A DNA stretch of 64,000 bases from Laetmonice hystrix (lineage: Eukaryota), in NCBI GenBank assembly GCA_965235115.1, contig OZ249436.1:7504001-7568000 (forward strand), in the 5' to 3' direction. The position numbers and the translations under genes are program-made. Positions 912 to 34,851 of the stretch are shown here, piece by piece. Below the pieces are notes generated by a model. That model was not told the DNA's origin. It ran no database searches and saw nothing but the letters and a program-made list of their open reading frames with translations. Every line of letters starts with the position of its first letter. Positions within the stretch are counted from its first letter, which is position 1.

Positions 912-3900
912 GCTGCTACTTTGGAAGCTACTTCATAATGGGTGGTGAAAGGTTTGATACAACACAGCCGGAAGCCTACTTGTTTGGTGAAAATCAAGAT
1001 TTGAATTTCCTTGGCAACAGGCCAATACCAGTAAGTATCAGTACAACACGTTTTTTTTAACACAGATTTTAAGGGGAGACTGAAACAAAATCATGAAAAA
1101 TCTACATATAAGTTTGATTAGATGATAACTTTTGGCTGCAGTATGGTAAATGATATTGCTGATGTTCAAAGAGAAAAATGTTTATTGAAGCTCAATATGG
1201 GATTCATTTTTTTTAGTTCCCCTATCCAGCGCCTCAGGCCAATGAACCTACAAAGACATTGAAAAGTCTTGTGAACATCAGAAAGGATTCTCTAAGGTTC
1301 ATCAGGTGAGTAAATTGGGAAGTAAATTTTTGCTGCTAACGTTCTGTCTTTATTTTTGTAGGTCCTTTGTTTTATCATTATAACTTGCTTATCCTGGTAT
1401 CCCCAATTCTACACATGAATTTTCAGCCAATTGGCCGATTTCTTCCCTTCTTTAGCCTTGAAACCCTGTACAAAGCCAATGGCAGGGTGAGATTTCAGCC
1501 TCTTTGATGTGTATTCACTCTAATGTTTGCTATTCTAAAAGTTAGCTGTGAGTATGAGTATGAGTATGAGCCAACATTTTGTGCACATGAATGCAGGATT
1601 CCAGGGGAGGAGAATCCTAAAGAAGAGAAACCTGAGGGAGAGCAGGAGGAGGAGATGGAGGAAGAAGAAGGGGAGAAAGATGAAGATAGTGAAGAGAAGG
1701 AAACCACCTCTCCACGTTACAACATAGAGTTCACCTTTGATACTGATGTTAGGGTGGCCATCACCATATACTACTTTGCCACAGAGGAGATCAGCAATGG
1801 CCAAGCAATGTAAGAAACAATAGCTGCCAGAAGGGTGATAGTCCAATTCTATGCAGGGTTGGCCGGGCAATACCCGGGCGGGTAATAATGTCCGGGAAAA
1901 CCCGGGAAAACCCGGGCTGGGCAATATCCCTAAAATCAGCTAAGTGGGCAATACTGGGTAATAAGAACAATATCATATACAATTCTCAAAAATGGAAAAA
2001 AAATTGCCAAACAGGGTCTCTATGCTTCATACTGGTAGGTCAGTACCTGAATAGCTATACAGTCAAGTACTGATACACACTGACTGAAAATTTCTCAGTT
2101 GCAGGACATTATATTCAGAGGCCTAGATCTACCTATAGAATCTGACTACCATGTAGAGTTTAGACAAGGCAGTCAGTATACACAGAGGAGCTAGAAGGCA
2201 CAGGTGCACCCCTCTCTTTACCGGTTCACTGATTCCAGTGTGTTGATTGATTCAGTGTAGTCATGAGTTGCCAGACGGTCTGGAGTATAGCCTATAGGAC
2301 AGGGATTATCTACTCTTTACAATGATACAATCACATCAGACTCACGGGTTCCAGTGTGTATCAATTTAGTACATTCTCATGAGTATTTTTTGAATGAAAA
2401 ATATTATGAATATTTTAAATGTTTACCACTTTAGTTGGACCTGGGGAAGCGTGTTGTCATAAAACCCAGTATTACCCATAAAACCCGTAAAACCCCGGTA
2501 AACCCGGTAAAACCCACTGGGCTGGGCAATAAGCTTAAAACCCGGGTTTTTGCCAACCCTGATTCTATGGGGGGGGGGAGTGCTAAATAATATACAGATC
2601 AAGTTGATCGAGTTGATCGAGGACTTCAGTTTCCTTTATCATTATTCTGGCATGGCCATGTATTAACTGGTATAACTGGTAAAAATGGAACTGTTGGATT
2701 TCATATGAATTCAAATAGACTTTTAGAAAAGGTCATAGCAGGGCAATATGATTGTGATTTCAAGTATATTAATATTTTAATATGGATAATTTCTGTGTTG
2801 CATTATACAGCTACCATCCACGTGATGTGACTATGAACTCTGAGACATACCACTACAAGCGAGGAGCCAACCAAACTTTTAGCCAGTCCACGCACATTGT
2901 TGAGCCCAGCAAATTCCCTGAAGAGGATGTAAGTCATATACATTTGCTTCTTGCAGTATTTTATTTCAGTTTCATTTAATTTGCACAGATTGTAAAGGTT
3001 TACTACATCAATACTAGCTGTACTAGTCAGTTGACTTGTTTATCTCAATCGGTATAGTCATGTATTTATCTTTGAAAATGTTTGGCTTGCAGTGGCAGTA
3101 CAATCCAGACAAGGATACAATCCCAGTTGTCATTCAGTGTGTTGTGGAGGATGAAGGTAAGCACTTAATGGCCATATCAGTAAGGGTCCTATAGTAATTG
3201 CCCATTACAGACTTTTTAAATTGTACTACTTGCAACATCAAGACAGTGGTCTGATGTTTTCAGTGAAATGTGCAACAGGACTAAAATCTGGTTATAATAT
3301 GCTAGAGAAACTGAGGATAGCTTTTCAACCAAGTCCTGTACGCTGATTATTTTTGGTAACCCTCAATGATTGGCATGGCATTGGTGATAAAATTTGATTA
3401 ATTAATGCATGATCAGGATACTAGTACCTTCAGACCAACTCAGTAGACCAATACATTGTTGACAACACTGTAAGGCATCATTCATTTTACCTGAAGGACT
3501 AAAATTTTTGTTGTTTTCTGGGATTTGTCCTGTATTATTCATGATCACATGACTTATTCATGTTTTCAGCAGAGCACACTGGACATTCACACATGACATT
3601 TGCTGTGGTGGACCAGTGGTCAAACGACAGCTATGTTCTCAAACCTCTGAAACAAAAACAAATGGTGGATGGACTATGCTATCTTCTTCAGGAGATTTAT
3701 GGCATTGAGAATAAAAATGCTGACAGAACAAAGGTATTGTATAACTTAGAAAAAGAGAATAAATGTATTGCAATTTTTGATACACAAAACTAATAAAGGT
3801 AAAGCAATATTTATATTGTGAATACTTCAGTGTCACAACAGTAGGAATGCATAGCACAGTCTGTAGTTTTACATAACAAATTGGGATGCAATTGATTATT

Positions 3901-19276: not shown

Positions 19277-20503
19277 TACTATTAGATCTACGTACGTCGT
19301 GTTGACGTCGCCACACATGCTGCAAGCATGTAGGGCAGGGGAAAGCGATGCGCCATTCTAATCAAGTGTCGGCATGGTCTCGTATTTTAGCAGCAGTCTG
19401 AACACCTTACGCAAACATGTGTATCTATATTTAATGAGTCTCTGGATAGTATCTGCGCCCTGTGTATGGATATAAAGAGTTATAATGATCCAGGTGGATA
19501 TAAAATGATTAACCTTCAAAGTCAACCAATTAGGGAAGCCATTTATAGGTCATTCATCACCATGAAGATCATAAAGTAATTATCATATACAGGGTGGCCC
19601 ATAAAAACCGGAATAGTATACGTATTTCCGTTATGCTGGTACCTATAAAACATAATAATGTGATCACAGGACCCCGCTTTCACGACGGCTCCCAGCCGAG
19701 TAGGTAATCCTGTTTAAAGATGCTCAAAAAAGCAACAGCAAAAAAATGGTATACATGCATGGTAGGAAAGGGAATCTGTCTTTATGAAAAATGACACAAT
19801 AATCATCTGATTCGGTTGAGTAGTTTTCTAATGGGAGCTATTTTGATGTGGCAAGTCTGGGTTCAACGGTACAGCACTGGAATTTCTTAACCATGATACT
19901 TCCCACCTATAAGTGTAGGCCACGTTGAACATTTTGTTGTTAAGTTTGAATTGTAGTCTTCCCTTAAGTTTGAAATAAAGTCCTTCTAGTCTTCTTTTGT
20001 TACACAGAATTTATGTTTTATGAGTAATGACAACCAAGACCGACTTATTGCACAAAAAAGGCTGTCATTAAAATCTAGTAATCCGAATATGGCGATCTTG
20101 GTGTTGAGACCGCCACGGTCTCAGCGTTAGCACTGCCGGGCCTCCGCCCGCTCTGACTGCCGACGACACAGTGTACACACACCGCCCCGGCCGCCGGTCG
20201 AGGCTCCGACCGCCGCGGTGATATAAACAACTCCCGATTTATTGTCTTTCACTGTCATACTGCTTTCACTTGCATGTATTATGATGTCAGGGTTAATACC
20301 TTTAGGAGTGGCCAGTTTTTATTTCTTTTAAAGCCACTTTAGGAAGGGTTTTAGGCTTCGGTGGAATCATGACAGTCGCTCGGTGGGTTGCGCAGCAACG
20401 GCTTGTTATGATTCGGTGGCACCGAGTCCCACCGAACCTCCACCGAGCCTCCACCGAGGTCCCACCGAAGACACCGAAGGCAGGGTCATGTGACGGCTCT
20501 AAG

Positions 20504-20541
20504 CCAATCAGGGCGCGTCTAGCGACCCGGTTACTATAAAA
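20504..20541 (+). promoter_or_regulatory. LTR core promoter: CCAAT box (20504-20508) and TATA box TATAAAA (20535-20541)
   Basis: agCCAATcag and cTATAAAAgggg closely spaced, downstream of a CACCGA array; duplicated at +7676 in the 3' LTR. Confidence 0.65.
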
Positions 20542-20951
20542 GGGGCGTGTCTTCGGTGGCGGGAGATTCGATACTAGAGACACTAGAGCTGACAGATCGG
20601 TGTTTTAGCAAGCGGTACAACCGCCTGAAAACCTTGAGAAAGGTACGTCGGCCATGGTTCCGACAATTAGTTACACCGTTCTCGTTCGTTTGACACTTGT
20701 TACGTTGGGTTGTCTCAGTTGTTAGAATTATTTTGACTCTGGTTTAGGTGTTCAATCAGGAATGTCTGTTGGTTACCTCACCCACCCGGGCCCCGCCCAC
20801 TTGACTGCCGTCCACCCATTTTAATGTTGACAAACAATCCCTGTCGTTTGACATGGTAAGCATGCTGCATGGTAGGTCTAGAATTAGCGTTGATTGTTTG
20901 ATGATGTTTAACTTTCAGGTTTAGGCCTAAGGCTAAGAGTAAGATTTAACC

Positions 20952-21923
20952 CTAGTTTTAACAGTGTGATATCTCATTCCACTGAGCCTGAGGGCTTACA
21001 CCACAATGGTGGTGACTAACTAGTATTAAACTAGTATTAAGCTAGAGTTAAATCATTAAAACTAGTTTTAACAGTGTGATATCCCATTCCACTGAGCCTG
21101 AGGGCTTACACCACAATGGTGGTGACTAACTAGTAGTAAGCTAGAGTTAAATCATTAAAACTAGTTTTAACAGTGTGATATCCCATTCCACTGAGCCTGA
21201 GGGCTTACATCACAACGGTGATGACTAACTAGTATTAAACTAGAGTTAATTAGATTAAATCATTAAAACTAGTTTTAACAGTGTGATATCTCATTCCACT
21301 GAGCCTGAGGGCTTACACCACAATGGTGGTGACTAACTAGTATTAAACTAGAGTTAAATTAGATTAAATCATTAAAACTAGTTTTAACAGTGTGATATCT
21401 CATTCCACTGAGCCTGAGGGCTTACATCACAACGGTGATGACTAACTAGTATTAAACTAGAGTTAAATCATTAAAACTAGTTTTAACAGTGTGATATCCC
21501 ATTCCACTGAGCCTGAGGGCTTACATCACAACGGTGATGACTAACTAGTATTAAACTAGAGTTAAATTAGATTAAATCATTAAAACTAGTTTTAACAGTG
21601 TGATATCTCATTCCACTGAGCCTGAGGGCTTACACCACAATGGTGGTGACTAACTAGGATTAAATTAGAGTTAAACTAGCTTGGATAATTAAGCCTAGAT
21701 TTAGTCCAGTGTGATACTGATCACCTGAGGAATTACATCACTATAAGTGATGAGTCCAGTGTGATACTGATCACCTGAGGAGTTACGTCACTATAAGTGA
21801 TGAGTCCAGTGTGATACTGATCACCTGAGGAATTACATCACTATAAGTGATGAGTTATATGTTTAGTCCAGTGTGATAATTGATCACCTGAAGAATTGCA
21901 TCACCATAGCCCAGGTGATGAGT
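20952..21923 (+). repeat. Hairpin-motif tandem array in the 5' LTR: 7 units of 99-110 bp plus 4 units of about 50-60 bp
   Basis: Long units start at 20952, 21062, 21161, 21269, 21378, 21477, 21586; short units at 21703, 21753, 21803, 21865. Shared core CAGTGTGATA..CCTGARG-NN-TTRCRYCAC-loop-GTGRTGA. Confidence 0.93.
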
Positions 21924-22288
21924 TAGGGTCAATCAAGTGCACATTGGTTCGATAGGATTTCTCCCACCGGTTTTGTGTGGTCAGGGAAAGCATGATTAGG
22001 AAGTGAGATCTGATTAGAGTAGATTAGTCTCATTAGATCTAGTTTAGCACAGGAGGTGTGTATAGCTGAAGCTAGGGTGTATTAACTATACATGTACTAG
22101 ACATTGGTGAGTGTATTTGACTACTTTGGTAGAAAACCAGGTAATGTTTAGGGGTCATTGTGTCATGGTAAGGTAATCCATGCCACAGGTACGTGTGTAT
22201 TGTACATAGAGGTTAATGAAGGTATTGTGATTACTTCCACCTGAGGACAGCAGCCAGGAGTCTACAAGAATGATGTATCGACGTCAGT

Positions 22289-22294
22289 AATAAA
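22289..22294 (+). promoter_or_regulatory. Candidate LTR polyadenylation signal (copy at 29965-29970)
   Basis: AATAAA about 260 bp before the LTR end; the only AATAAA I noticed in the LTR. Confidence 0.5.
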
Positions 22295-22558
22295 ATCATT
22301 TTAATTTATACATACTGAAGTCCAGTTTTACAACCGTAGTCCAGATCCAGGATAATTCGCCCATATCCCGTTTTTATTTTTATTAAACTGCCCGCCTTGG
22401 AATCAGTGTAAAGCAGGGTATTCACCGTTACCCTTACGCAATTAGCTTTTGGCCATAGTATAGCTACCCCACGTGTTAACAGCACAGCGTTACCATATTC
22501 CCCGTTATTTCTTTTCCCCTTCCCAAATCCCTGTCGGTCCCAGGACGGTCACAGTTTT

Positions 22559-22576
22559 TGGTGGCAGCGGTGGGAT
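22559..22576 (+). other. Primer-binding site complementary to the tRNA-Leu 3' end
   Basis: TGGTGGCAGCGGTGGGAT is the reverse complement of ATCCCACCGCTGCCA-CCA, the eukaryotic tRNA-Leu(AAG/TAG) 3' end; 5 nt after the 5' LTR. Confidence 0.88.
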
Positions 22577-22733
22577 CTGGTGAATTCTATTTTATATCCT
22601 GGAAAAAAATCTGGACTATAGGTAATTATAGGACTAAACCAAGAACGTTGGTTAAATGACATAGTCCTAAAACTAAAGTAGGATAGGTCAATCTAGATAC
22701 TGTTAGGTAGGAAGTAGGAAGGTAAACATAAAT

Positions 22734-24317
22734 ATGTCTGAATCTTCACCATTGGTGACTAGAGAGAGTGTTGTGGGTGGGCCCACTCCAAGCTCGGAGA
22801 GTGGTGTGCCACACCCAAGCTATAATTTAAGAAGTCAACGGCCGCTCACTGAGCGTGCTATGGTGAGTGTCAACCTCCCAGGTGTGACACCTATAAGTAC
22901 TCCTGTTAGGGAGCCCCGGGTTGACCCGACCGTAACTACGGTTGGCATGGTACCTGGGGCAGGAGATGCTGAAAGCATTCCCCTGCAAAATGCAGATGGG
23001 GTTAGCAATCGGGATGGGCTGGTTACCCAGTCTATCACTAGGCCCATTGTGGCAATGCCACATATTGTTCCCATTTGCACAGTCTCCTCCAATCAGCCTA
23101 TGCACGGTACGCCCGTGACCACGAGGGCTGGCTACCATAATGATGGTAGAACTTCTGGCATCGCTCCTATCCCGAGTCAGAGTCACCTTGGAGAGATGAG
23201 ACCTGTGTCACTGGAACAGGACCGTCGTACTGGTGAACAGCACCAGAATGACAGCCGAGGGCATGACCCTATGGAGCTGATACGACAGTTATCAACCACC
23301 GTCTTGAGCTTATCTAACGAGGTTTTGGCGCTCAGGGAGCACAGGACCTCCAGTGATGCTGACATAAGCAATGGACGTCAATCTAGAAATTGTCATGGTA
23401 ACAATCCACCTGCCCGGGTATCCCTGCACTTACCAAAGTATTCTGGCCGGGGAGACTATGTAGCCTTTGAGGCGCAGTTCCAGAACGTGGCCAGACAGTG
23501 CTACTGGGACGATGAAACAAGTGCTGAGATGCTAGGGTGTGCCCTTGAGGGCACAGCCCAGAGGTACTACGCTAGGTTGCCGGTACCAAACCGTTACAAC
23601 TACCAGTGGCTCGCCTCCACTATGCGCAAGCGCTATTGTGCTCATGTTCCTGAAGTACAGCGGGAAAAATTGTTGGGCCGCACCCGCAAAGCTGGTGAAA
23701 GTATGGCCGACTTAGGTGACGACATATGGCGCTTAGTGCAAGAGTCTTATCCAGAAATGGAGTACAGTTTTCAGGAATCCATTGCACTAGACTGCCTTAA
23801 GCGTGCAGTTGACCAAGAGCTGCGGCTCAGGTTTATTGACAGAGGGGTGACGACACTGCAAGGTGCAGTGGAGGTAGCTGAGGTATATGAGTCAGTGGTG
23901 AAACGTGGTAAGCCGCCAGTGGCAGGCCAGCACAGATCAGTGAGGGCAGTGGGAATGAATGGGGATAAGAATTCCCCTGACGAGGAGTATGGCAAGACTA
24001 GCTCTAGATTAGCCAAGGTGGAACGAGATGTTAGTCAGTTGAAGAATAGCATGACAAAACTCCAGAAGACCATGGAAGGTCTTGGTCAGGCTAATGGGTC
24101 TCAAGGCAGGCCCCAGAGTAGAGGTCAGCAGCCACCAAACCATTTTGGTAGGGGTAGGCCAGATAACCGCAATTTTTCTGGTAGGCCGTATGAGGGTGCA
24201 AACAGGCCTAGTAGGGGTGAGTGTTTTAAGTGTGGCAGTAAGGATCACTGGGCAAATGAGTGTCCCCAGAGAACAGGTAGAAATCAGGGAAACGCCCCAC
24301 CACCAGGTCGAGCCTAG
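22734..24317 (+). CDS. gag: Retrotransposon Gag (capsid plus CCHC zinc knuckle), 527 aa
   Basis: Gypsy capsid pattern LPKYSGRGDYVAFEAQFQNVARQCYWDD..LGCALEGTA; coiled-coil segment; CFKCGSKDHWANEC knuckle; uninterrupted ORF. Confidence 0.92.
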   Translation: MSESSPLVTRESVVGGPTPSSESGVPHPSYNLRSQRPLTERAMVSVNLPGVTPISTPVREPRVDPTVTTVGMVPGAGDAESIPLQNADGVSNRDGLVTQSITRPIVAMPHIVPICTVSSNQPMHGTPVTTRAGYHNDGRTSGIAPIPSQSHLGEMRPVSLEQDRRTGEQHQNDSRGHDPMELIRQLSTTVLSLSNEVLALREHRTSSDADISNGRQSRNCHGNNPPARVSLHLPKYSGRGDYVAFEAQFQNVARQCYWDDETSAEMLGCALEGTAQRYYARLPVPNRYNYQWLASTMRKRYCAHVPEVQREKLLGRTRKAGESMADLGDDIWRLVQESYPEMEYSFQESIALDCLKRAVDQELRLRFIDRGVTTLQGAVEVAEVYESVVKRGKPPVAGQHRSVRAVGMNGDKNSPDEEYGKTSSRLAKVERDVSQLKNSMTKLQKTMEGLGQANGSQGRPQSRGQQPPNHFGRGRPDNRNFSGRPYEGANRPSRGECFKCGSKDHWANECPQRTGRNQGNAPPPGRA

Positions 24318-24359
24318 GCAGTTACCTGGTGGGAAGTCATGGAAAAGGAGGCCCTAGGC
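24287..24359 (+). promoter_or_regulatory. -1 ribosomal frameshift signal (G GGA AAC plus predicted pseudoknot)
   Basis: Heptamer 24287-24293 in X XXY YYZ phase with gag; stem 24300-24308/24324-24332; second pairing 24312-24318/24353-24359; the -1 frame is open into the protease ORF. Confidence 0.85.
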
Positions 24360-25411
24360 ATGGTTGTTCACCAGAAAGGGAAGTAAGGCCCAGTTCTGCT
24401 AAGGTAGAAAGTGGTATTGTTGCTTGTGCGGGAGATACCCAATCCACAGTACATGATGTTGAGCCAGGACAGGTTATTTTTAATGAGAGTGTGGCAGGTA
24501 ACGAGGGGAGTGCGAGTGAAGTACCCCCACTAGTTTCCCCTGATAATGATAGTGATAGCGAGGCTCGTGTGGAGCCAGGGTTAGTTATCTCATCAGGTGG
24601 GGAAGAGGATTCAGAAAGTCTGGATCACTCAGGATGCTGTCAGGTCACAAGTGTGACTGACGTTGTATTTGCTCGAGATGAGCAGGGCGGCAGCTGTGTG
24701 GCTGACCTACCCAGTGATTGTGTAGCCGTGGGAGCGGACACTAAAACTTTGGTTCAATGTACTGGGGGTGGGGTATCGGGTGCGAGAGCAATAGGCAGGT
24801 CTTGCTACAGGATAGGGGACGAGGGTCAGATACTGAGGGTTCGAGTAGCTGATCAGTATATTTCACTTCTGGTGGATACAGGTAGCCAAGTGTCAGTGTT
24901 GGCACGCCGGGTGTATGATGCACTACCGGATGAGTATCAGAATCTAGTAAGGACTGGGTTGTCTCTGAGAGCTGTGAATGGTTCCCCCTTTCCCGTGGAG
25001 GGAGTAGTAGAATTACCTTTGGAGGTTAGTCGAGAAAATAATGCAAGTAGTGAGACATTCCTTATAGCGGACATAGGGCAGTCCTTTGATGTGGATGGCA
25101 TCCTGGGGGTGGACATCCTAAGAGCTCATAAAGGTCAGATTGATCTAGAAAGTAATCAAGTTAGATACGATGGTGTCTGGGTCCCATGTCAGGTAGTAGA
25201 TGCCACAGAAGTGGTAACAGCTGAAGGTGTCACCATCGAGCCTGGTTGTGTGTCTTCCATGACTGTTAATTTACCAAGTTTAGAGGGCGGAGTGTCCCAG
25301 TTAGGCTTAGTTCAGCCACTAGTGAAGGTCGGAGGCGAGGGTGACCTCCTGATAGCTCAGTGCATGGTAGCCTCTAACATAGGCCGTACGTGTGTACGGC
25401 CTATCCGCTAG
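24290..25411 (+). CDS. Retroviral-type aspartic protease region of pol (-1 frame), ended early by an insertion
   Basis: ISLLVDTGSQVSVL, LRAVNGSPFPVEG and GILGVDIL motifs; the stop at 25409-25411 lies inside the inserted DNA. Confidence 0.88.
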   Translation, partial: KRPTTRSSLGSYLVGSHGKGGPRHGCSPEREVRPSSAKVESGIVACAGDTQSTVHDVEPGQVIFNESVAGNEGSASEVPPLVSPDNDSDSEARVEPGLVISSGGEEDSESLDHSGCCQVTSVTDVVFARDEQGGSCVADLPSDCVAVGADTKTLVQCTGGGVSGARAIGRSCYRIGDEGQILRVRVADQYISLLVDTGSQVSVLARRVYDALPDEYQNLVRTGLSLRAVNGSPFPVEGVVELPLEVSRENNASSETFLIADIGQSFDVDGILGVDILRAHKGQIDLESNQVRYDGVWVPCQVVDATEVVTAEGVTIEPGCVSSMTVNLPSLEGGVSQLGLVQPLVKVGGEGDLLIAQCMVASNIGRTCVRPIR

Positions 25412-26018
25412 CGAACGGGCTACGAGACCAAACGTTCTTGCGCAGAATGAATGTGCTTCCGCACCTCTTCCAACACTTCAAATAAAAGATTGCCTTTACC
25501 TTCAGCTACTGAGCCCAATGAACTTACTTGGTGTTCCTCTAAGCAACAGATCCGGCCAATTTTCCAAACCAAGCGACCACTTTCCATAGTCTTACAACCG
25601 GCGCCATTTCTGTAAATCCACATCCGGGGTCAAGCTCACGAAGGGAGCAGTCATTTCAAACGTTGGCTACTAGTTCGGCGCCATAATGGAGGAATTCCTG
25701 TTCGGTCTAGAATAATAAATGCTCCCCTGCTGGTCGCCAGTGTGCGTGTTTTGAACATGCGCAGTAGAACAAACAGTATGGCGGCTAACGGCAGTGAAAC
25801 AGCGCGATTCGCAATTTCGGAAGTCTGATTTATTAAAACTTTGGGCAAAAATCCTCGGAAAAGTGTGCAGCAGAGGAACAGAAGATGGGCTGCGTTAGAA
25901 TTGACACCTCAACTGGCAGTAGTTACGATGGATTTTGCACAGCGAGTGATTGACATCGGAGGTAGGGTTTTTCGGGTTAACGCTGTCCGTCCCTACACTG
26001 GGGACGATACTCCGTCTA
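25368..26018. mobile_element. About 650-bp non-coding insertion in pol
   Basis: Direct repeat AGTGCATGG(TAG) at 25359-25370 and 26019-26030; TAG...CTA ends; hairpins near both ends; removing 660 bp restores the pol frame (LIAQCMVDGGMRQISLTT). Confidence 0.82.
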
Positions 26019-26020
26019 AG

Positions 26021-26779
26021 TGCATGGTAGATGGGGGGATGCGTCAGATTTCACTCACCACAATTAATATGGGGAAGACACGGGTGAGTCTTCCTCCAGG
26101 TCAGATCGTGGCTCATTTGGAACCCCTAACCCCTGAGGATGAGAAAGGTATGTTGTGTAATGCCGTCAAGAAAGACGAACAGGTAGAGTTACCTGAACAT
26201 TTGCTGGAGATGTTCCAGAGAAGCTGTGAGCATTTAAATACTGATCAGGCCCTGAGGCTTCACTGCGGGGGGCGCAAGTCAACCCATTTCTCAGAGCTGT
26301 GTGGGATGGCACGTCCCGACTCCGTCCCCAACCCTGGATTTGTGGACCCCGGACGCTGCCAGCTGCCCTGGGAGCAGGGACCTGCCCCCCCTTTGGCGAC
26401 CAAGCGCCCGGCCGAGGACGCCCCCAGTCAGACGGAACAGGCCCCCACCAAGAAGGCCCGGGTGACCACCTGCCGGGATGGAGCGTCCTCCAGCATCTTC
26501 ACGCCCGTGGTGCCCGAGGGCAAGGCTGCCCTCCTCGCCTTCCTGGAGAAGTCTCGGCAGATGGTGGATGTTTGGATGAAGGCCAGCCGGACCGCCGCCG
26601 ACCGTCTGCGCGAGTTGGAGGCAGCGACTCGACGGGAAGCCGACCAAGCCCTGCGCGAGAGGGCCCGCCAACTAGAGTTTGAGCGCCGTCGAGTCTCCAA
26701 CCTGCGTGGTCAGCTGGACTCCAACCAGGACGTCGCCTGTTCCCCCCTTTCTCGTTGGGGGCGCTCCCGGTTCTTGTAG
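26021..26779 (+). pseudogene. Pol linker remnant fused in frame to the C-terminal part of a GC-rich accessory ORF
   Basis: INMGKTRVSLPPGQIVAHLEP..LPEHLLEMFQRSCEHLNTDQALRL resembles the Gypsy protease-RT linker; near 26260 GC content jumps and the frame continues into unrelated NLS-like and coiled-coil sequence. No RT motifs. Confidence 0.62.
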
Positions 26780-26805
26780 GAGCTGACATTTTTCTTCCCC
26801 CTGTT

Positions 26806-27076
26806 TTTTTAATGGTACATCGTTAGGTCTATTTTTTTTTACTGTACCCATGGCCGTTTTTAGCGGAGCCTGCTTCAGAGGGAGTGGGCTGGCCATGTTT
26901 TTGCAGTTTTTGTGACTGCCTAGTTTTTTTGTCCCCTTCCCCCCTTTTTAATGGTACATCGTTAGGTCTATTTTTTTACTGTACCCATGGCCGTTTTTAG
27001 CGGAGCCTGCTTCAGAGGGAGTGGGCTGGCCATGTTTTCGCAGTTTTTGTGACTGCCTATTTTTTTTGTCCCCTTT
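26806..27076. repeat. 139-bp tandem dimer in the 3' untranslated part of the LTR element
   Basis: aatggtacatcgttaggtcta...gtgactgcct starts at 26811 and again at 26950. Confidence 0.9.
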
Positions 27077-27768
27077 CCCTTGTTGTGCATTGTAAATGCT
27101 TTGAACTTGTCACTTGAGAAATGTCTTTTACATGTACATGTACTGGATCAGAGTAGGTGTCTACCTTTAGAGGGATGAGTGCTACTATTGTTACTGTTAG
27201 GCCTAGTAACTGCTAGTCTACACGTTTGCTTGGACTTGGTATAATGTGTATATGTCTTGTGTCTACGATGCTACTGTGTACAGTGTAGCCTAACACAATC
27301 GGTTTTATAAAGTCTAATAATATAAAGCAAGGTATGGGGCTCACCAGGTGGTTTTCAGCCTCTACGGACAGCACGTGGCCCTACCGTCTCTAGTCTGTGC
27401 ACACCAACTCCTACTCACTGTTGGGCCAAAGCGTAATCCAAAGGATGTGTCTGGTATTCCAATGTAATGCTTGTATATATTCCAACTGTTGTAATTAACC
27501 ATTGTCAGGGATGATCTAGTGATGATTAAGACTTTTTCAGGTTTGCTGTGATGTTTGGTGATCTATGAGAGGTGTCACTGTATTCACTTGTAAGGTTGTC
27601 CGGTGCCATGCCGCCGGACTGGAAACTAGGTCAGCAGCTTGACGTCATGCCACGTCATACTTTTAAGTAGGTCACCTCGTGACATTAGTCTTAAAGGGAC
27701 ACTGTATTGAGCCTTAAAGGTGCACCAGAAGAATGTATGTTGGTTAGCTCGGGACGAGCTATATTTTT

Positions 27769-27780
27769 AGAGGGGGGTAA
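27769..27780 (+). other. Polypurine tract
   Basis: AGAGGGGGG-TAA immediately before the 3' LTR, preceded by a T run and a tagctc-gggac-gagcta hairpin. Confidence 0.85.
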
Positions 27781-30229
27781 TGAGACCGCCACGGTCTCAG
27801 CGTTAGCACTGCCGGGCCTCCGCCCGCTCTGACTGCCGACGACACAGTGTACACACACCGCCCCGGCCGCCGGTCGAGGCTCCGACCGCCGCGGTGATAT
27901 AAACAACTCCCGATTTATTGTCTTTCACTGTCATACTGCTTTCACTTGCATGTATTATGATGTCAGGGTTAATACCTTTAGGAGTGGCCAGTTTTTATTT
28001 CTTTTAAAGCCACTTTAGGAAGGGTTTTAGGCTTCGGTGGAATCATGACAGTCGCTCGGTGGGTTGCGCAGCAACGGCTTGTTATGATTCGGTGGCACCG
28101 AGTCCCACCGAACCTCCACCGAGCCTCCACCGAGGTCCCACCGAAGACACCGAAGGCAGGGTCATGTGACGGCTCTAAGCCAATCAGGGCGCGTCTAGCG
28201 ACCCGGTTACTATAAAAGGGGCGTGTCTTCGGTGGCGGGAGATTCGATACTAGAGACACTAGAGCTGACAGATCGGTGTTTTAGCAAGCGGTACAACCGC
28301 CTGAAAACCTTGAGAAAGGTACGTCGGCCATGGTTCCGACAATTAGTTACACCGTTCTCGTTCGTTTGACACTTGTTACGTTGGGTTGTCTCAGTTGTTA
28401 GAATTATTTTGACTCTGGTTTAGGTGTTCAATCAGGAATGTCTGTTGGTTACCTCACCCACCCGGGCCCCGCCCACTTGACTGCCGTCCACCCATTTTAA
28501 TGTTGACAAACAATCCCTGTCGTTTGACATGGTAAGCATGCTGCATGGTAGGTCTAGAATTAGCGTTGATTGTTTGATGATGTTTAACTTTCAGGTTTAG
28601 GCCTAAGGCTAAGAGTAAGATTTAACCCTAGTTTTAACAGTGTGATATCTCATTCCACTGAGCCTGAGGGCTTACACCACAATGGTGGTGACTAACTAGT
28701 ATTAAACTAGTATTAAGCTAGAGTTAAATCATTAAAACTAGTTTTAACAGTGTGATATCCCATTCCACTGAGCCTGAGGGCTTACACCACAATGGTGGTG
28801 ACTAACTAGTAGTAAGCTAGAGTTAAATCATTAAAACTAGTTTTAACAGTGTGATATCCCATTCCACTGAGCCTGAGGGCTTACATCACAACGGTGATGA
28901 CTAACTAGTATTAAACTAGAGTTAATTAGATTAAATCATTAAAACTAGTTTTAACAGTGTGATATCTCATTCCACTGAGCCTGAGGGCTTACACCACAAT
29001 GGTGGTGACTAACTAGTATTAAACTAGAGTTAAATTAGATTAAATCATTAAAACTAGTTTTAACAGTGTGATATCTCATTCCACTGAGCCTGAGGGCTTA
29101 CATCACAACGGTGATGACTAACTAGTATTAAACTAGAGTTAAATCATTAAAACTAGTTTTAACAGTGTGATATCCCATTCCACTGAGCCTGAGGGCTTAC
29201 ATCACAACGGTGATGACTAACTAGTATTAAACTAGAGTTAAATTAGATTAAATCATTAAAACTAGTTTTAACAGTGTGATATCTCATTCCACTGAGCCTG
29301 AGGGCTTACACCACAATGGTGGTGACTAACTAGGATTAAATTAGAGTTAAACTAGCTTGGATAATTAAGCCTAGATTTAGTCCAGTGTGATACTGATCAC
29401 CTGAGGAATTACATCACTATAAGTGATGAGTCCAGTGTGATACTGATCACCTGAGGAGTTACGTCACTATAAGTGATGAGTCCAGTGTGATACTGATCAC
29501 CTGAGGAATTACATCACTATAAGTGATGAGTTATATGTTTAGTCCAGTGTGATAATTGATCACCTGAAGAATTGCATCACCATAGCCCAGGTGATGAGTT
29601 AGGGTCAATCAAGTGCACATTGGTTCGATAGGATTTCTCCCACCGGTTTTGTGTGGTCAGGGAAAGCATGATTAGGAAGTGAGATCTGATTAGAGTAGAT
29701 TAGTCTCATTAGATCTAGTTTAGCACAGGAGGTGTGTATAGCTGAAGCTAGGGTGTATTAACTATACATGTACTAGACATTGGTGAGTGTATTTGACTAC
29801 TTTGGTAGAAAACCAGGTAATGTTTAGGGGTCATTGTGTCATGGTAAGGTAATCCATGCCACAGGTACGTGTGTATTGTACATAGAGGTTAATGAAGGTA
29901 TTGTGATTACTTCCACCTGAGGACAGCAGCCAGGAGTCTACAAGAATGATGTATCGACGTCAGTAATAAAATCATTTTAATTTATACATACTGAAGTCCA
30001 GTTTTACAACCGTAGTCCAGATCCAGGATAATTCGCCCATATCCCGTTTTTATTTTTATTAAACTGCCCGCCTTGGAATCAGTGTAAAGCAGGGTATTCA
30101 CCGTTACCCTTACGCAATTAGCTTTTGGCCATAGTATAGCTACCCCACGTGTTAACAGCACAGCGTTACCATATTCCCCGTTATTTCTTTTCCCCTTCCC
30201 AAATCCCTGTCGGTCCCAGGACGGTCACA
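27781..30229 (+). repeat. 3' LTR (2449 bp), with the second hairpin-motif array at 28628-29599
   Basis: Direct repeat of 20105-22553 at offset 7676; followed by TSD GTGT. Confidence 0.96.
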
Positions 30230-31372
30230 GTGTCATTTTTCTTCAAAAATAGATTCTCTATCCAGCCATACAAATTGTTGGGATATTGGGATATCGGGAA
30301 TATGCTATTCTGTTTTCTGGGCCACCCTGTATATGACTCCTTAATTCAATATGGTGCCTTTTAATAACCGAAAACGAATTAGTTCCATAGCCATAGCAGC
30401 CCCCCCCCCCCTTATTGAGCAATTATAAATGCCTGCGTTAAATGCTCTCATTATTTCATATAAATTTACTTGTCACCGTTCTAAACTGTGCATAATGTGT
30501 CCGTTTGGGGGGCACTCATGCCCACACAACAAAATAGGCCTATATCAACACGTCACACAGCCGACAGGAAAGAAGGATTGTCTTTGAGCTGTGAACTTTG
30601 AACCCATGCCACAATTCTACACGATCCCACAATCCTGTTTCAGAGACTATTATAGCAACCAAAACCTATTGTGAGAAAATGGCTCAACGTATGATCTCAT
30701 GTATACCTGACCACACACCATTGTGGTTAACAATCTTTACCACAAGGATTCGAAAGTTTAAGGAGAAAGGCGTCAAACCACCGACCATATCCCACCCACA
30801 TACTATAGCAGATCTTGCAGTCATGACTATACACCCGTGTTAACCTATGTTTTCTGTACCGGGGAATAGCAAGGTCGGTATATATAATACATGTATTATA
30901 TAATAGGTGAACAAGTGTTCTGAAAATAAAATGCCTTGTGAAGACTGGCTCTATTATATTTAATCACGGAATCTCTGCATTTTCAATGAATCATTTCTTT
31001 GGAAACTTCATTCACATATCAATTTCCTGCACGTTTTTTTAAAGTGAAAACTTTAAAAATGCAAAACTTAAATATATTAATAATAATTATTATTACTCAA
31101 CAGAATTCATCATTACCTTTTATAACCTTTTAACTTGGATTATACGTTTAGTCGCTACAATTTAGAAGACGTATATCCGAAAGCCGTTTGGTGCCGTCCC
31201 GTTGCACACGTCCATCCGACACAGAATAGAATTTAATAATTGTGCGCACAGTTCTATCTATAGGCCTATACTCTTGAAGTTTTCACGATAGACTTCTGCC
31301 TTTGATCCATGTAGCCCTACTATATTTTCCACCGGTCGGGCCATCTATACCTTTTTACTACTCTTCCACGTA

Positions 31373-32707
31373 TTATACGTCATGAACTGATATACCTGTG
31401 TTTCCTGCTATTATGCTGGTACTAGTGGTAGGTCTACGCGCAACAGTCAATTTGCTCGAACATCCACAAATTCTCTCTAGCTTGTCAAACGCTTTGCGCA
31501 AAATACTTCGGAATGCCTCTCTAAAATTTCTTCCAGCGACGTTGTAGATGAAGAAGTCTACTCCAAAGTTCAGGTAGTAAAGATGGTAGATACAGACTAC
31601 AAGGGCTTTGTAGGGCAATGAATACTCTGGATGACTTAAAACGTCGTCAAGTGACCAATTACTGAAGCGAAAATAGTGGTATTCCTTTAGCAGTTCGTAA
31701 GGCAACCCTAACACTATGAAAGCACTTGACGAAATCACCAACATGCGTGTCATCCGGTAGTGAGATCGACGGTTTGAGGAGACCGCCTGTAAGAATCGCA
31801 CCCTGGCAGACACAGTCCTGTCTCGGCTTCCATCAACCTGGAAGTTTGTCGGCGAGGATTCTCTGGACGGTGACGCCTCCCCGAACGAACGCCCAACGCG
31901 CGCGTCTTGACGGACCAACGCGCAAATAATCCGTACGTTTAGCCCCACGGTTAGAGACGTGGGCAACAACCAGGTGAATATAAGAGTAAAGACACAGGAC
32001 CACTTAAGTATAAGTTCGTAGCCAGCTTTGGCAGTGCACTGGGGTACATCGGTGGATCCGACAACCCGACTTTCAAACATCCACAACGTTGGCGTAAAAC
32101 AAGCCAGCGCAAAAACAGCGGAGACGCCGATAAGCAGACGAGTTCTTCTTTTGGTGCACCATGTTTTACGTCGTAATGGCCAGCACGTTGCAATGTACCG
32201 TTCAGCCGTGTATCCCAAAACGTACGCTGTACTCAAGAAACTGAAGACCCCGGTGAGGTAATACGTCAGTTGACACAAAGGAAACTGCCACTGGAATACA
32301 CCAGCTCCATGTAACCATCGGACTAGTAGACACAGCAGGAATCCGGAATCCGTAAGGGCAAGGGCGGCCAGATATGAACTGCAGCTGAGTCTGCTTAACC
32401 CCGAGGCCATGTAAACGACAAGTGCGAGGGTGTTACCCGACACTCCAAGTCCCACAATGAGTGGTACCACGACGTACTGAAACCACTGCATGATGAGAAG
32501 CTCTTCAGATTGCTTTCCCAGCTCTGCACCTGGAAACATGGTCGTCTGTTCTATCCCGGCGGCTTCTTTGCTAATGCCCGATTCGTTCCGAAGTAGCGTG
32601 TAGTTAACACGAGGCGATGAACTGCCTTGGGTGGAATGCTGAAATATCGTTTCTTGTTTTTCTGTCAATTGCCAGAAAGCAGAGGTGCTTAGGTCCTGTT
32701 TCGCCAT
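31373..32707 (-). CDS. Class A (rhodopsin-like) GPCR, FMRFamide/TRH-receptor-like orphan peptide receptor, intronless
   Basis: Seven hydrophobic segments; GN (TM1), LALTD (TM2), AERYIATCWPL (TM3), ECL2 Cys, LP (TM5, TM6), LNFGVDFFIY (TM7), NFREAF helix 8. First ATG at 32707; the ORF extends to a GTG at 32755. Confidence 0.9.
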   Translation of the reverse strand: MAKQDLSTSAFWQLTEKQETIFQHSTQGSSSPRVNYTLLRNESGISKEAAGIEQTTMFPGAELGKQSEELLIMQWFQYVVVPLIVGLGVSGNTLALVVYMASGLSRLSCSSYLAALALTDSGFLLCLLVRWLHGAGVFQWQFPLCQLTYYLTGVFSFLSTAYVLGYTAERYIATCWPLRRKTWCTKRRTRLLIGVSAVFALACFTPTLWMFESRVVGSTDVPQCTAKAGYELILKWSCVFTLIFTWLLPTSLTVGLNVRIICALVRQDARVGRSFGEASPSRESSPTNFQVDGSRDRTVSARVRFLQAVSSNRRSHYRMTRMLVISSSAFIVLGLPYELLKEYHYFRFSNWSLDDVLSHPEYSLPYKALVVCIYHLYYLNFGVDFFIYNVAGRNFREAFRSILRKAFDKLERICGCSSKLTVARRPTTSTSIIAGNTGISVHDV

Positions 32708-34851
32708 ATCTAAAGCTGCAACGTGTAGACTTCTAACGGAGAAATATCGCCTCACAATGTGCCTACTAAGAATCCGTTGGGCGGTGGTGTACGTTCTGTA
32801 AGATTGATATAATCCATGCTGCTATTAACCACGGCAAAATTTACCGCATTTCTCGTCTCTTCTGTAAACACAAACCCACGCGTCAATCTGAGCCACTTTC
32901 CGAGAATTCCTGCGGCACTTTCTGATCCCGGTTTCAGCTGTGGTGTGTGTCCACCCCACGCCGCCACTGGAGAAAAAGCAGATCTAGATCTATGCGAGAG
33001 GCTGCGCGCATATTAACTCCGCACATGTATCCGCCTCCTGTGATTAATAGCACCAGGCCTGCACGCGCCCTGTCCGGCGTATAAACCTGGATGCTGTCAG
33101 CCTGTGATAGGCCTACAGGCTTCCAAGTGGCAGGGGACAATTGCCCGACCTTGAAATTGAATCTTCAGTGTAGGCAGTACACATCGTGTTGATTGGGATC
33201 GATCAATCAGAAGTGGGCAATAAGCCACCAAGAGATAGGGCCCACCCAGTGGCGATTCCAGGGGTGGGTGGGTAGGGGGGGGGGGTTAAACCCTCCTATA
33301 GGTAAGCGATTTTTCTTTTTCCGCGTATGGTATACGAATATAGAAGATTTCTGAATTGACCATGCTAACCCCTTGTCCAAGTTATGCAAGGGATTTATCC
33401 CCCACCCCTCTTTAGGAAACCCTGCCCTTACCAAACTCATGGATCCGCCCCTGCCACCCTCGTAGACATGTGCATATAACCATGCTATAATATGTCTATA
33501 AAACCCCATTCATACATGTATAATCTAGGCCTAATTAAGCCTATATTGCATTAAAATATCGCGCCTTTCGTGTCCAGTCCTCCCTTGAATGTCGTCCCTT
33601 CCAATAATACCCAATCGTCGAGCGGTTGACTGGGTATTATTTGATCAGCGGATGACCACTGTTGTGCTATAAACGTGGGTGTCCATTTGATCCTGTCATA
33701 ATAAATGGACCTTTACCCCCAGTAACCTAGCGCAGAAACAATGGTGACGTTTCACACACTCCACCATGTAGAAAGGCAGGCACAATGACATGCATTTAGT
33801 CCCTTTGACGGTCATTCCACATGTCAGTACTGTTATCAACGTACACAGTTACGAAATCCAAGACCTTTGCGAGTGGATCTCCTAGGACCAGCGATCCAAG
33901 ACAAAATTAATGGATCGATTGCTTCTATTCAAAGCTTCCCGGACACGTAGGACCCTTCTGACAACCCTTATACAAAGCTTGATGGATCAGTCTTTTGTCA
34001 AACTGTAGACACAGCAATTAACATTAGGCCTAATCATCGCTCTATTGGAGAGACTTGTAAATCAAATTAGGAAATAGTGTCGTGTCCTATGTTTAGCAGC
34101 ATGTTCACGGAATTGACACCAGTTAATGTTTAAATATCGGAGGCGAGTTGGCTGGAACTGAAAATTACGTCAGTAGATCTAAGAGGGCCCTGCATGGGTA
34201 CGTCGGCGGAGAGACTCTACGCTTCAGTAGACCCATATGTCGACGTACGTAAAGCCAATCCATGTGTACGTAGTGTAGGCGTGATGCGTAATGCCTACTG
34301 CGTAGTGCGTAATGCGTAAAATTAAAGGGGCATATTATGAAGAAACGTGAAAAATCGGTATTTCAAAGAACTAAAGTTTCATCGTTATCAGTTTCGTCCG
34401 CTCATCGTTTGCACGTGGCTTTTGTTGATCGATCGAGTGCAACTGATGAATTGTTTAAACTAAGCGAAGCACGTGACTAAGCAATTGCAGAGAGTGCACA
34501 CGCAGGATGTGACGTAGTATGCAATTACTCGGGTTGATGGGAGGTTGTCTACCAAATTATGGCGGGAGATGGAAATGAAAAGGTGGTGGTCACGGTCACG
34601 GTTGACTATAATTAGAGCTAGGCCTATTATGCAGGGCCGGATCCAGGATTCGTAGAAAGGGGGGCGTAGCCCCTGGAGAAGATTGCGAGCACCGAATAAG
34701 GCGCAAAGCCCCCAGAAAAATTTGAAAATTCATGTTTGTCAGATGCATTTTCCCGGCATCTGAAAATTCCAGTCTCAAAAAAATCATTATTTTGCCAAAA
34801 ATAGGGGGGGGGCGTACGCCCCCCACGCCCCCCCTCCTTGGATCCGGCCCA

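Follow-up and report, generated by a model that had tools for sequence, protein, structure and literature searches.

We analysed a window of 64,000 nucleotides from Laetmonice hystrix, a stretch of contig OZ249436.1 (positions 7,504,001 to 7,568,000) in a 627-Mb eukaryotic assembly. It contains a Ty3/gypsy (Metaviridae-type) long terminal repeat (LTR) retrotransposon, and each LTR of this element carries a tandem array of eleven hairpin units. The array varies between copies and is restricted to one family, and every variant of its 3′ hairpin that has spread among elements keeps its pairing on the plus strand. This pattern gives modest support to selection of the 3′ hairpin as a plus-strand RNA hairpin, or as one of plus-strand single-stranded DNA. 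We see an even chance that the array is a multivalent cis-acting RNA signal for packaging or dimerisation, or for export, of the element's own RNA.

Both tandem families claimed in an earlier sequence-only reading of the window were found. Tandem Repeats Finder (TRF), a motif scan and folding delimit seven long units of 99–111 nt at 20952..21706 and four short units of 50–62 nt at 21707..21930, all on the plus strand. The long units start at 20962, 21072, 21171, 21279, 21388, 21487 and 21596 and measure 110, 99, 108, 109, 99, 109 and 111 nt in that order. The short units start at 21707, 21757, 21807 and 21869 and measure 50, 50, 62 and about 62 nt. TRF gives periods of 99, 109, 208 and 317 nt at 20952–21716 (scores of 914–1354) and of 50 nt at 21703–21855 (score of 292), repeated at +7676, and the units run head to tail in non-coding sequence of the element. 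The second copy, expected at 28628–29599, was located by TRF and self-comparison at 28628..29606 on the plus strand of the 3′ LTR and is identical, with no mismatch between the LTRs at offset 7676.

The core ascribed to both unit classes, namely CAGTGTGATA, CCTGARG-NN-TTR and a 6–7 bp hairpin, is present in full, and the quoted hairpin variants occur as written across units 1–11. CACCAC-aatg-GTGGTG is the form of units 1, 2, 4 and 7, CATCAC-aacg-GTGATG that of units 3, 5 and 6, CATCACT-ata-AGTGATG that of units 8 and 10, CGTCACT-ata-AGTGATG that of unit 9 and CATCACC-atagccca-GGTGATG that of unit 11. Variant sites also reassort, in that position 13 (T or C) and the hairpin type are met in all four combinations among the seven long units. 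The long-unit linkers are AT-rich, and a 16-nt perfect palindrome, TTAAAACTAGTTTTAA, lies once in each of the six linkers between the long units (21056–21599). Where the long-unit hairpin has an AAUG loop (21006, 21116, 21323 and 21640), the loop holds an AUG with A at −3 and G at +4, which opens a five-codon frame (MVVTN, then a stop); the AACG loop variant abolishes this AUG.

Single units were folded by RNAfold, and its minimum-energy and centroid structures contain the 3′ hairpins as well as the second stems proposed earlier, AGCC-ugag-GGCU and GUGAU-acug-AUCAC. Folding also gave the long units a CAGUG/CACUG stem and lengthened the 5′ stem of the short ones by CAG/CUG. A long unit is then a row of three adjacent hairpins, CAGUG/CACUG (5 bp), AGCC-ugag-GGCU and CAYCAC-aayg-GUGRUG. 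A short unit consists of two, CAG-U-GUGAU/AUCAC-CUG and a 7-bp stem with a 3- or 8-nt loop, and its AGGARUUR is unpaired. The middle segments of the two classes differ, yet both complement the shared 5′ CAGUGUGAU motif. The single-unit z-scores range from −1.7 to −4.2 on the plus strand, which folds better than the minus strand in all five units tested.

The whole array has an energy of −316 kcal/mol on the plus strand versus −288 kcal/mol on the minus strand (20 shuffles each). Its minimum-energy fold retains the 3′ hairpin in all seven long units and in the last short unit, and the three middle short units pair differently without it. The linker palindromes TTAAAACTAGTTTTAA pair with one another between units in this fold and, being self-complementary, could also link two RNA molecules. 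The module had been called not assignable to a known family, and this held: cmscan found 0 Rfam 15 matches over 20000–30300 on both strands with E up to 1. A likeness of CAGUGU to the iron-responsive element was considered and rejected, the motif being paired rather than in a loop and without an Rfam match.

About two dozen LTRs of the array-bearing family are present in the genome. By the anchor CCTGARG-NN-TTR, units were extracted from 22 oriented LTRs of 17 elements, leaving aside the window's second LTR and seven overlapping loci. The resulting table holds 205 units (101 long, 104 short) that reduce to 55 distinct ones. Each of the 22 LTRs has 0–9 long units and 2–18 short units, with 4 to 23 repetitions of the module. 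Long units are absent from three LTRs, which are truncated or have an internal deletion. All 14 LTR copies that match over the full 856-nt 5′ LTR query have the array.

The degenerate 18-nt module pattern CCTGARGNNTTRYRYCAC has 213 matches in the genome versus 2 for the reversed control, so chance does not explain the module. The matches listed are almost all in LTRs of the array-bearing family, with one lone odd site, and on that ground the module is confined to one family in this genome. Outside the repeats, identity between LTR copies is mostly 85–100%, indels make up much of the difference and substitutions amount to a divergence of only a few percent. By these values the family is very young.

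Hairpin pairing among the family copies

The 3′ hairpin of the 205 units was scored by its variant and by the number of elements carrying that variant. A variant in at least three elements was taken as spread and one in a single element as private, a split made after seeing the data. The third pair of the long units has three spread states: C-G (49 units in 12 elements), U·G (15 units in 8 elements) and U-A, the last with the aatg loop (21 units in 7 elements) or the aacg loop (10 units in 3 elements). The second pair of the short units is A-U (16 elements) or G·U (31 units in 10 elements). Their seventh pair is U-A with a 3-nt loop or C-G with an 8- or 14-nt loop, forms that occur in 7, 4 and 4 elements, and the first pair of the last unit is C-G or U·G, the latter in 6 units of 4 elements.

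Plus-strand pairing is kept in each of these spread variants, and none of the six inferred substitutions is disruptive. The changes C-G/U-A at long pair 3 and U-A/C-G at short pair 7 are compensated. The three common one-sided changes are all G·U on the plus strand and would be A·C on the minus strand, a pattern with a chance probability of 0.125. Loop length takes values of 3, 4, 8 and 14 nt while the stem is kept. Among the 13 private stem variants, on the other hand, a single one is a wobble and 12 break the pairing, and two of these 12 (C·A and CATCACG) occur in both LTRs of their element.

The difference between the six spread substitutions and the 13 private variants has a Fisher one-sided p of 0.00026, or of 0.0021 when the four variable pairs are counted instead. 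A formal pair count over the 55 distinct units, at five pairs aligned consistently by MAFFT, found 96.4% of the cells paired and 8 double-sided changes versus 2.7 expected. Only 1 of 500 shuffles reaches the observed value, a control that may be inflated, since related sequences can beat shuffles without any structure. Slid controls had 4–32% of cells paired, and 87% at slide −3 on only 47 cells.

These variants bear on the most likely rival, an enhancer array, in which the units would be transcription-factor sites on double-stranded DNA in U3, with a start near 22300–22330 and with copy number tuning transcription. We judge it unlikely. Tandem repeats in LTRs are classically enhancers, and murine leukaemia viruses have 72–75 bp direct-repeat enhancers in U3, which resemble the present array as tandem repeats of variable copy number in an LTR. 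The CCTGARG is invariant as sequence, which suits a protein site on DNA, and the CACCTG located in short units and the GCC-N4-GGC located in long units are, we presume, E-box-like and AP-2-like, respectively.

The hairpin fits such a site less well. Its half-sites co-vary and its common asymmetric variants are all plus-strand wobbles, which is unexpected of a homodimer site, and the half-sites are spaced by 3, 4, 8 or 14 bp. Because half-sites on double-stranded DNA need not co-vary and the spacing ranges so widely, a symmetric DNA site is disfavoured. The palindromic DNA-binding site, offered earlier as the alternative to a structured RNA, is for the same variable loop and the three asymmetric common variants a poor fit. 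The murine leukaemia virus repeats differ also in this respect, as here the half-sites co-vary, their spacing changes and a conserved TATA promoter and donor lie upstream.

Position of the array in the transcript

The array was said to lie between a TATA box and AATAAA, and it is indeed flanked by TATAAAAG (20535) and by the sole AATAAA of the LTR (22289). The upstream TATA promoter is backed by cross-family conservation of a promoter-like block at 20420..20545 on the plus strand, whose motif order is kept in a divergent subfamily and in related families. The block comprises CACCGAR short repeats (20420–20470), TCATGTGAC, CCAAT (20504) and the TATA motif. A consensus donor, AAG/GTACGT (20643), stands 107 nt past the TATA box and an acceptor-like TTTCAG/G is at 20918. 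Between them is a putative intron-like segment (20643..20918, plus strand) that ends 33 nt before the array.

The divergent subfamily (L012/L014) retains the promoter motifs, the donor and some 70 nt leading up to the acceptor, and the interior of the segment has diverged with large indels; as judged from the alignment, this is the pattern of an intron. Two families with LTRs otherwise unalignable (L040 and L042, Gag 65% identical) show the same motif order with GGTACGT 105 nt after the TATA box, and their promoter block is present in both LTRs of those elements. The layout across families accordingly runs from CACCGAG-type repeats, TCATGTGAC, CCAAT and TATAAAA to a donor 105–107 nt on, an intron-like segment and a tandem array. 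It spans 20420–20918 in the window, 3130–3680 in L040 and 3340–3700 in L042. Among the 38 genome matches to the query 20105–20960 there is no precise loss of the intron-like segment; copies matching only the two flanking blocks of this query have a diverged or enlarged middle part. Contigs of three sequencing runs, from one sample and one study, pass unbroken through the intron-like segment and its flanks and are therefore DNA.

Behind the array, an ATG scan and cross-family comparison delimit an ATG-free stretch at 22274..22655 on the plus strand, with 383 nt between ATGs. It holds GACGTCA (22280), the sole AATAAA, the putative U5 and TGGTGGCAGCGG. The 460 nt from 22274 to the gag ATG contain 1 ATG versus 8.0 expected (P = 0.0018, 5000 shuffles), and the plus strand of the window has at most three ATG-free gaps longer than this one of 383 nt. 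Ahead of the gag ATG (22734) there is a two-codon ATG frame at 22656.

In contrast to this stretch, 20 ATGs lie in the array and the part after it, and 12 of them are in the array itself, 4 of these in AAUG loops with good initiation context. By these counts the gag message is not scanned through the array. Hence there would be either a second start near 22300, with the array in U3, or a translated RNA from which the array is spliced out or in which it is bypassed.

The enhancer explanation gains from this stretch in three ways. The promoter-like GACGTCA and AATAAAA (22289) behind the array are kept in all related families examined, the scarcity of ATGs up to gag is significant, and the block conserved across families begins at 22256–22270, fitting a start there. 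It loses by the conserved upstream promoter and the donor at a fixed distance, which put the start before the array.

On the same conservation of promoter and donor across families, we hold a transcription start before the array, near 20566, to be fairly probable. A start behind the array appears less probable, though the ATG-free, cross-family conserved block from about 22260 would fit it. Whichever start is used, the array would be in the full-length plus-strand RNA, once or twice, since each part of an LTR is transcribed in at least one of its two copies.

Two other splice-like sites were observed near the LTR end. A perfect donor-like CAG/GTACGT at 22186–22194, 100 nt before AATAAA, is kept in 9 of 9 copies aligned. 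Other subfamilies and related families have ~40 extra bases with an acceptor-like CCCTTTTCAG/G at 22381/22382, which are absent from the window's subfamily.

The host element and its relatives

Self-comparison at offset 7676 defines a 5′ LTR at 20105..22553 (plus strand, 2449 bp, TG...CA) and a 3′ LTR at 27781..30229 (plus strand), which are identical, with zero mismatches from 20105 to 22555. The element is flanked by the target-site duplication GTGT (20101–20104 and 30230–30233). A primer-binding-site-like TGGTGGCAGCGG is at 22559, 5 nt past the 5′ LTR, and a purine tract, AGAGGGGGG, is at 27769–27777, ahead of the 3′ LTR. These direct TG...CA repeats, duplication, primer-binding site and purine tract are those of a Ty3/gypsy LTR element. 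The domain order comes from a longer relative on another contig (L037/L038), in which RVP, RVT_1, RT_RNaseH, Integrase_H2C2 and rve follow one another with gag upstream.

The window copy itself keeps gag and protease only. Its gag (22734..24317, plus strand) has a CCHC zinc knuckle (zf-CCHC) near the C-terminus and is followed by an open frame with a domain match to retroviral aspartyl protease (24281..25411, plus strand). The copy lacks the reverse transcriptase, RNase H and integrase that longer relatives have. The gap amounts to 3.7 kb, and the break lies between GAGGCT and GAGACT (26253–26259). With such ends and no GT start, it looks like a microhomology deletion at the short GAG(G/A)CT repeat; a spliced-out intron was rejected, as the deleted stretch does not begin with GT. 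The internally deleted copy nevertheless has identical LTRs. It also has 645 extra bases at 25371–26015, flanked by the 12-nt direct repeat AGTGCATGGTAG.

Behind pol, a third open frame of 316 aa lies at 25829–26779 in the window copy and has 343 aa in the longer relative (L037 4721–5752, minus strand). No Pfam family matched it and its best Atlas feature score was 0.89, below the meaningful level; it may encode an envelope-like or accessory protein. In the internal region ahead of the 3′ LTR, a stretch of 137 nt is duplicated in tandem at 26806–27079 (2.0 copies, 96% match). Outside the element, 1.1 kb past the 3′ LTR, an uninterrupted 482-aa frame at 31373–32821 on the minus strand carries a rhodopsin-family seven-transmembrane receptor domain (E 8e-25).

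Related families, with Gag 54–65% identical, share the promoter layout and the end with U5 and the primer-binding site. None of their 12 loci matches the array by BLAST, and 10 of the 12 share only parts of 22256–22591, the sole part of LTR and leader that this search finds in common. Most of these loci carry arrays of their own between the promoter block and the U5 end. Those in the LTR are 32 nt × 16.4, 83–88 nt × 2.5, 59 nt × 2 and 52 nt × 4, and in some families further repeats separate the primer-binding site from gag (71 nt × 4–5.6 and 60 nt × 2). Since related families place different arrays between a shared promoter and a shared U5 end, the array of the window is, on this comparison, one family's version of the variable repeat region known from LTR elements. 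It has the features of one, being made of head-to-tail non-coding repeats with varying copy number and family-specific sequence.

Of six related-family arrays folded on the plus strand, four did better than their shuffles and two did no better, so hairpins as a general property of arrays in related LTRs were rejected. The 32 nt × 16 array stands directly before the conserved LTR end, and the 59-nt doublet, of another family, has an 11–12 bp hairpin. The related-family arrays are at L039 4155–4678, at about 4470–4868 in L043, L049 and L050, and at about 3490–3610 and 4410–4540 in L044–L047. Satellite-like arrays beside LTR fragments of the same superfamily were seen at L035 1900–4030 and L044 1–2566 (42 nt × 48 and 72 nt × 36). 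Promoter blocks of a short related family occur three in a row at 36289195, 36294070 and 36298945 (G000:C5), and their 4875-bp spacing suggests a tandem LTR-internal-LTR-internal-LTR arrangement.

Competing explanations and meaning

In the favoured explanation, the multivalent RNA signal, each unit would present an invariant single-stranded CCUGARG-NN-UUR followed by a 6–7 bp hairpin in the plus-strand genomic RNA. Seven to eleven or more copies would then form a multivalent protein-binding platform. The bound protein would most likely be the element's own Gag, through its zinc knuckle, for genome selection or dimerisation; a host export factor for unspliced RNA is the other candidate. Copy number and variant shuffling probably arise by template switching of the reverse transcriptase and by unequal exchange between units. 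The explanation supposes three things: an array present in the genomic RNA, hairpins that form in vivo and a protein bound to them.

Gammaretroviral packaging signals are paired stem-loops. Structured RNA elements related to LTRs include a Rec response element of 433 nt, which HML-2 has in its U3, a constitutive transport element derived from an LTR and the constitutive transport elements of Mason-Pfizer monkey virus and MER11 (PMC11379458). By analogy, the array would resemble these signals as a plus-strand RNA structure that its place in the LTR or terminal region carries into the genomic RNA, with the repetition raising valency. It differs from them in having no sequence or Rfam match, in its much shorter and simpler hairpins with their many repetitions and in a binding that is only proposed. 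By titles and abstracts, nothing fitting was found in the literature on a hairpin-bearing tandem array as a packaging signal of an LTR retrotransposon.

A more particular form of the RNA signal combines it with the upstream start, and as a whole it is doubtful. The LTRs would have an R of ~1.7 kb starting at ~20566, a short conserved intron and the array at both ends of the genomic RNA, where the array would act as a Gag-recognition or dimerisation signal or as an export signal. With each round of reverse transcription, strand transfers that misalign the two R copies would set the copy number anew. The template for Gag synthesis would be an RNA that bypasses the array by splicing, shunting or a second start, and such a bypass would explain the 383-nt ATG-free stretch.

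Several points weigh against a selected RNA signal. The covariation comes from about six informative events in one very young family of one genome, and a quasi-palindrome can acquire compensatory changes by intrastrand template switching even if selection plays no part. The two 5′ stems are invariant among the common variants, thus contributing no covariation, and the invariant CCTGARG is kept as sequence, not structure, which fits a DNA site equally well. The stems are short, the single-unit z-scores are modest and no Rfam covariance model matches. An array with 12 ATGs cannot be part of a scanned gag leader. Only four of the six arrays tested in related families fold better than shuffles, so that hairpins are no general property of this LTR region, and being one case of a general repeat region weakens the claim that this array is special. 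The structured RNA module of the sequence-only reading is therefore upheld in part: the plus-strand pairing is kept, the loop is variable and Rfam has no match, with so few events in so young a family on the other side.

A neutral hypervariable repeat, less likely than the enhancer, would be a by-product of template switching or slippage in a tolerant part of the LTR, and the hairpin an inherited palindrome that perhaps promotes slippage. It accords with the wide copy-number range, with the different array that each related family has in the same LTR region or leader and with the better folding of only some of those arrays.

Parallels exist in other elements. The 5′ untranslated regions (UTRs) of ZAM and Tirant have similar hypervariable arrays, 2.3 × 307 bp in ZAM and 2–6 × 102 bp in Tirant (PMC5408687), and in Ogre/Tat the variable arrays of the 3′ UTRs have been attributed to aberrant strand transfer in the course of replication (PMC7004042). 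Structured RNA in the path of a reverse transcriptase has been described as stimulating indels (PMC5737552), which we count for neutrality. Like these arrays, ours consists of head-to-tail units of variable number and family-specific sequence in a Ty3/gypsy-type element. Unlike them, it lies inside the LTR rather than in an internal UTR and has two unit classes with one core module. Its hairpin is kept via compensated and wobble changes, and such pairing is absent from the parts of these accounts compared.

Neutrality is at odds with the pairing itself, kept in 6 of 6 spread steps versus 1 of 13 private variants, which is unexpected without selection. Nor does any LTR matched over the full 856-nt query lack the array. 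A small-RNA source had also been proposed and, in a microRNA- or piRNA-like form, is very improbable: there are repeated fold-backs in a probably transcribed region, but with 6–7 bp their stems fall well short of known hairpin precursors, which have roughly 20 bp or more, and are too short for a microRNA-type precursor, and Rfam has no match.

A variable tandem array in an LTR element is a known kind of feature, and the plus-strand pairing apparently kept in still-transposing lineages lifts this one a little above the ordinary. Should the hairpin prove neutral, there would be nothing unusual about this repeat region. Enhancers or junk are the usual verdict on tandem arrays in LTR elements, and here the common and the private variants of one family, set against each other, suggest that the hairpin is under selection. 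The conserved layout also raises the question of where R starts in LTRs of 2–2.5 kb. If the RNA signal is true, the array would be a natural multi-copy hairpin tag with a copy number differing between insertions. It would then offer a handy system for RNA selection, export and dimerisation in invertebrate Ty3/gypsy elements, in which these are little known.

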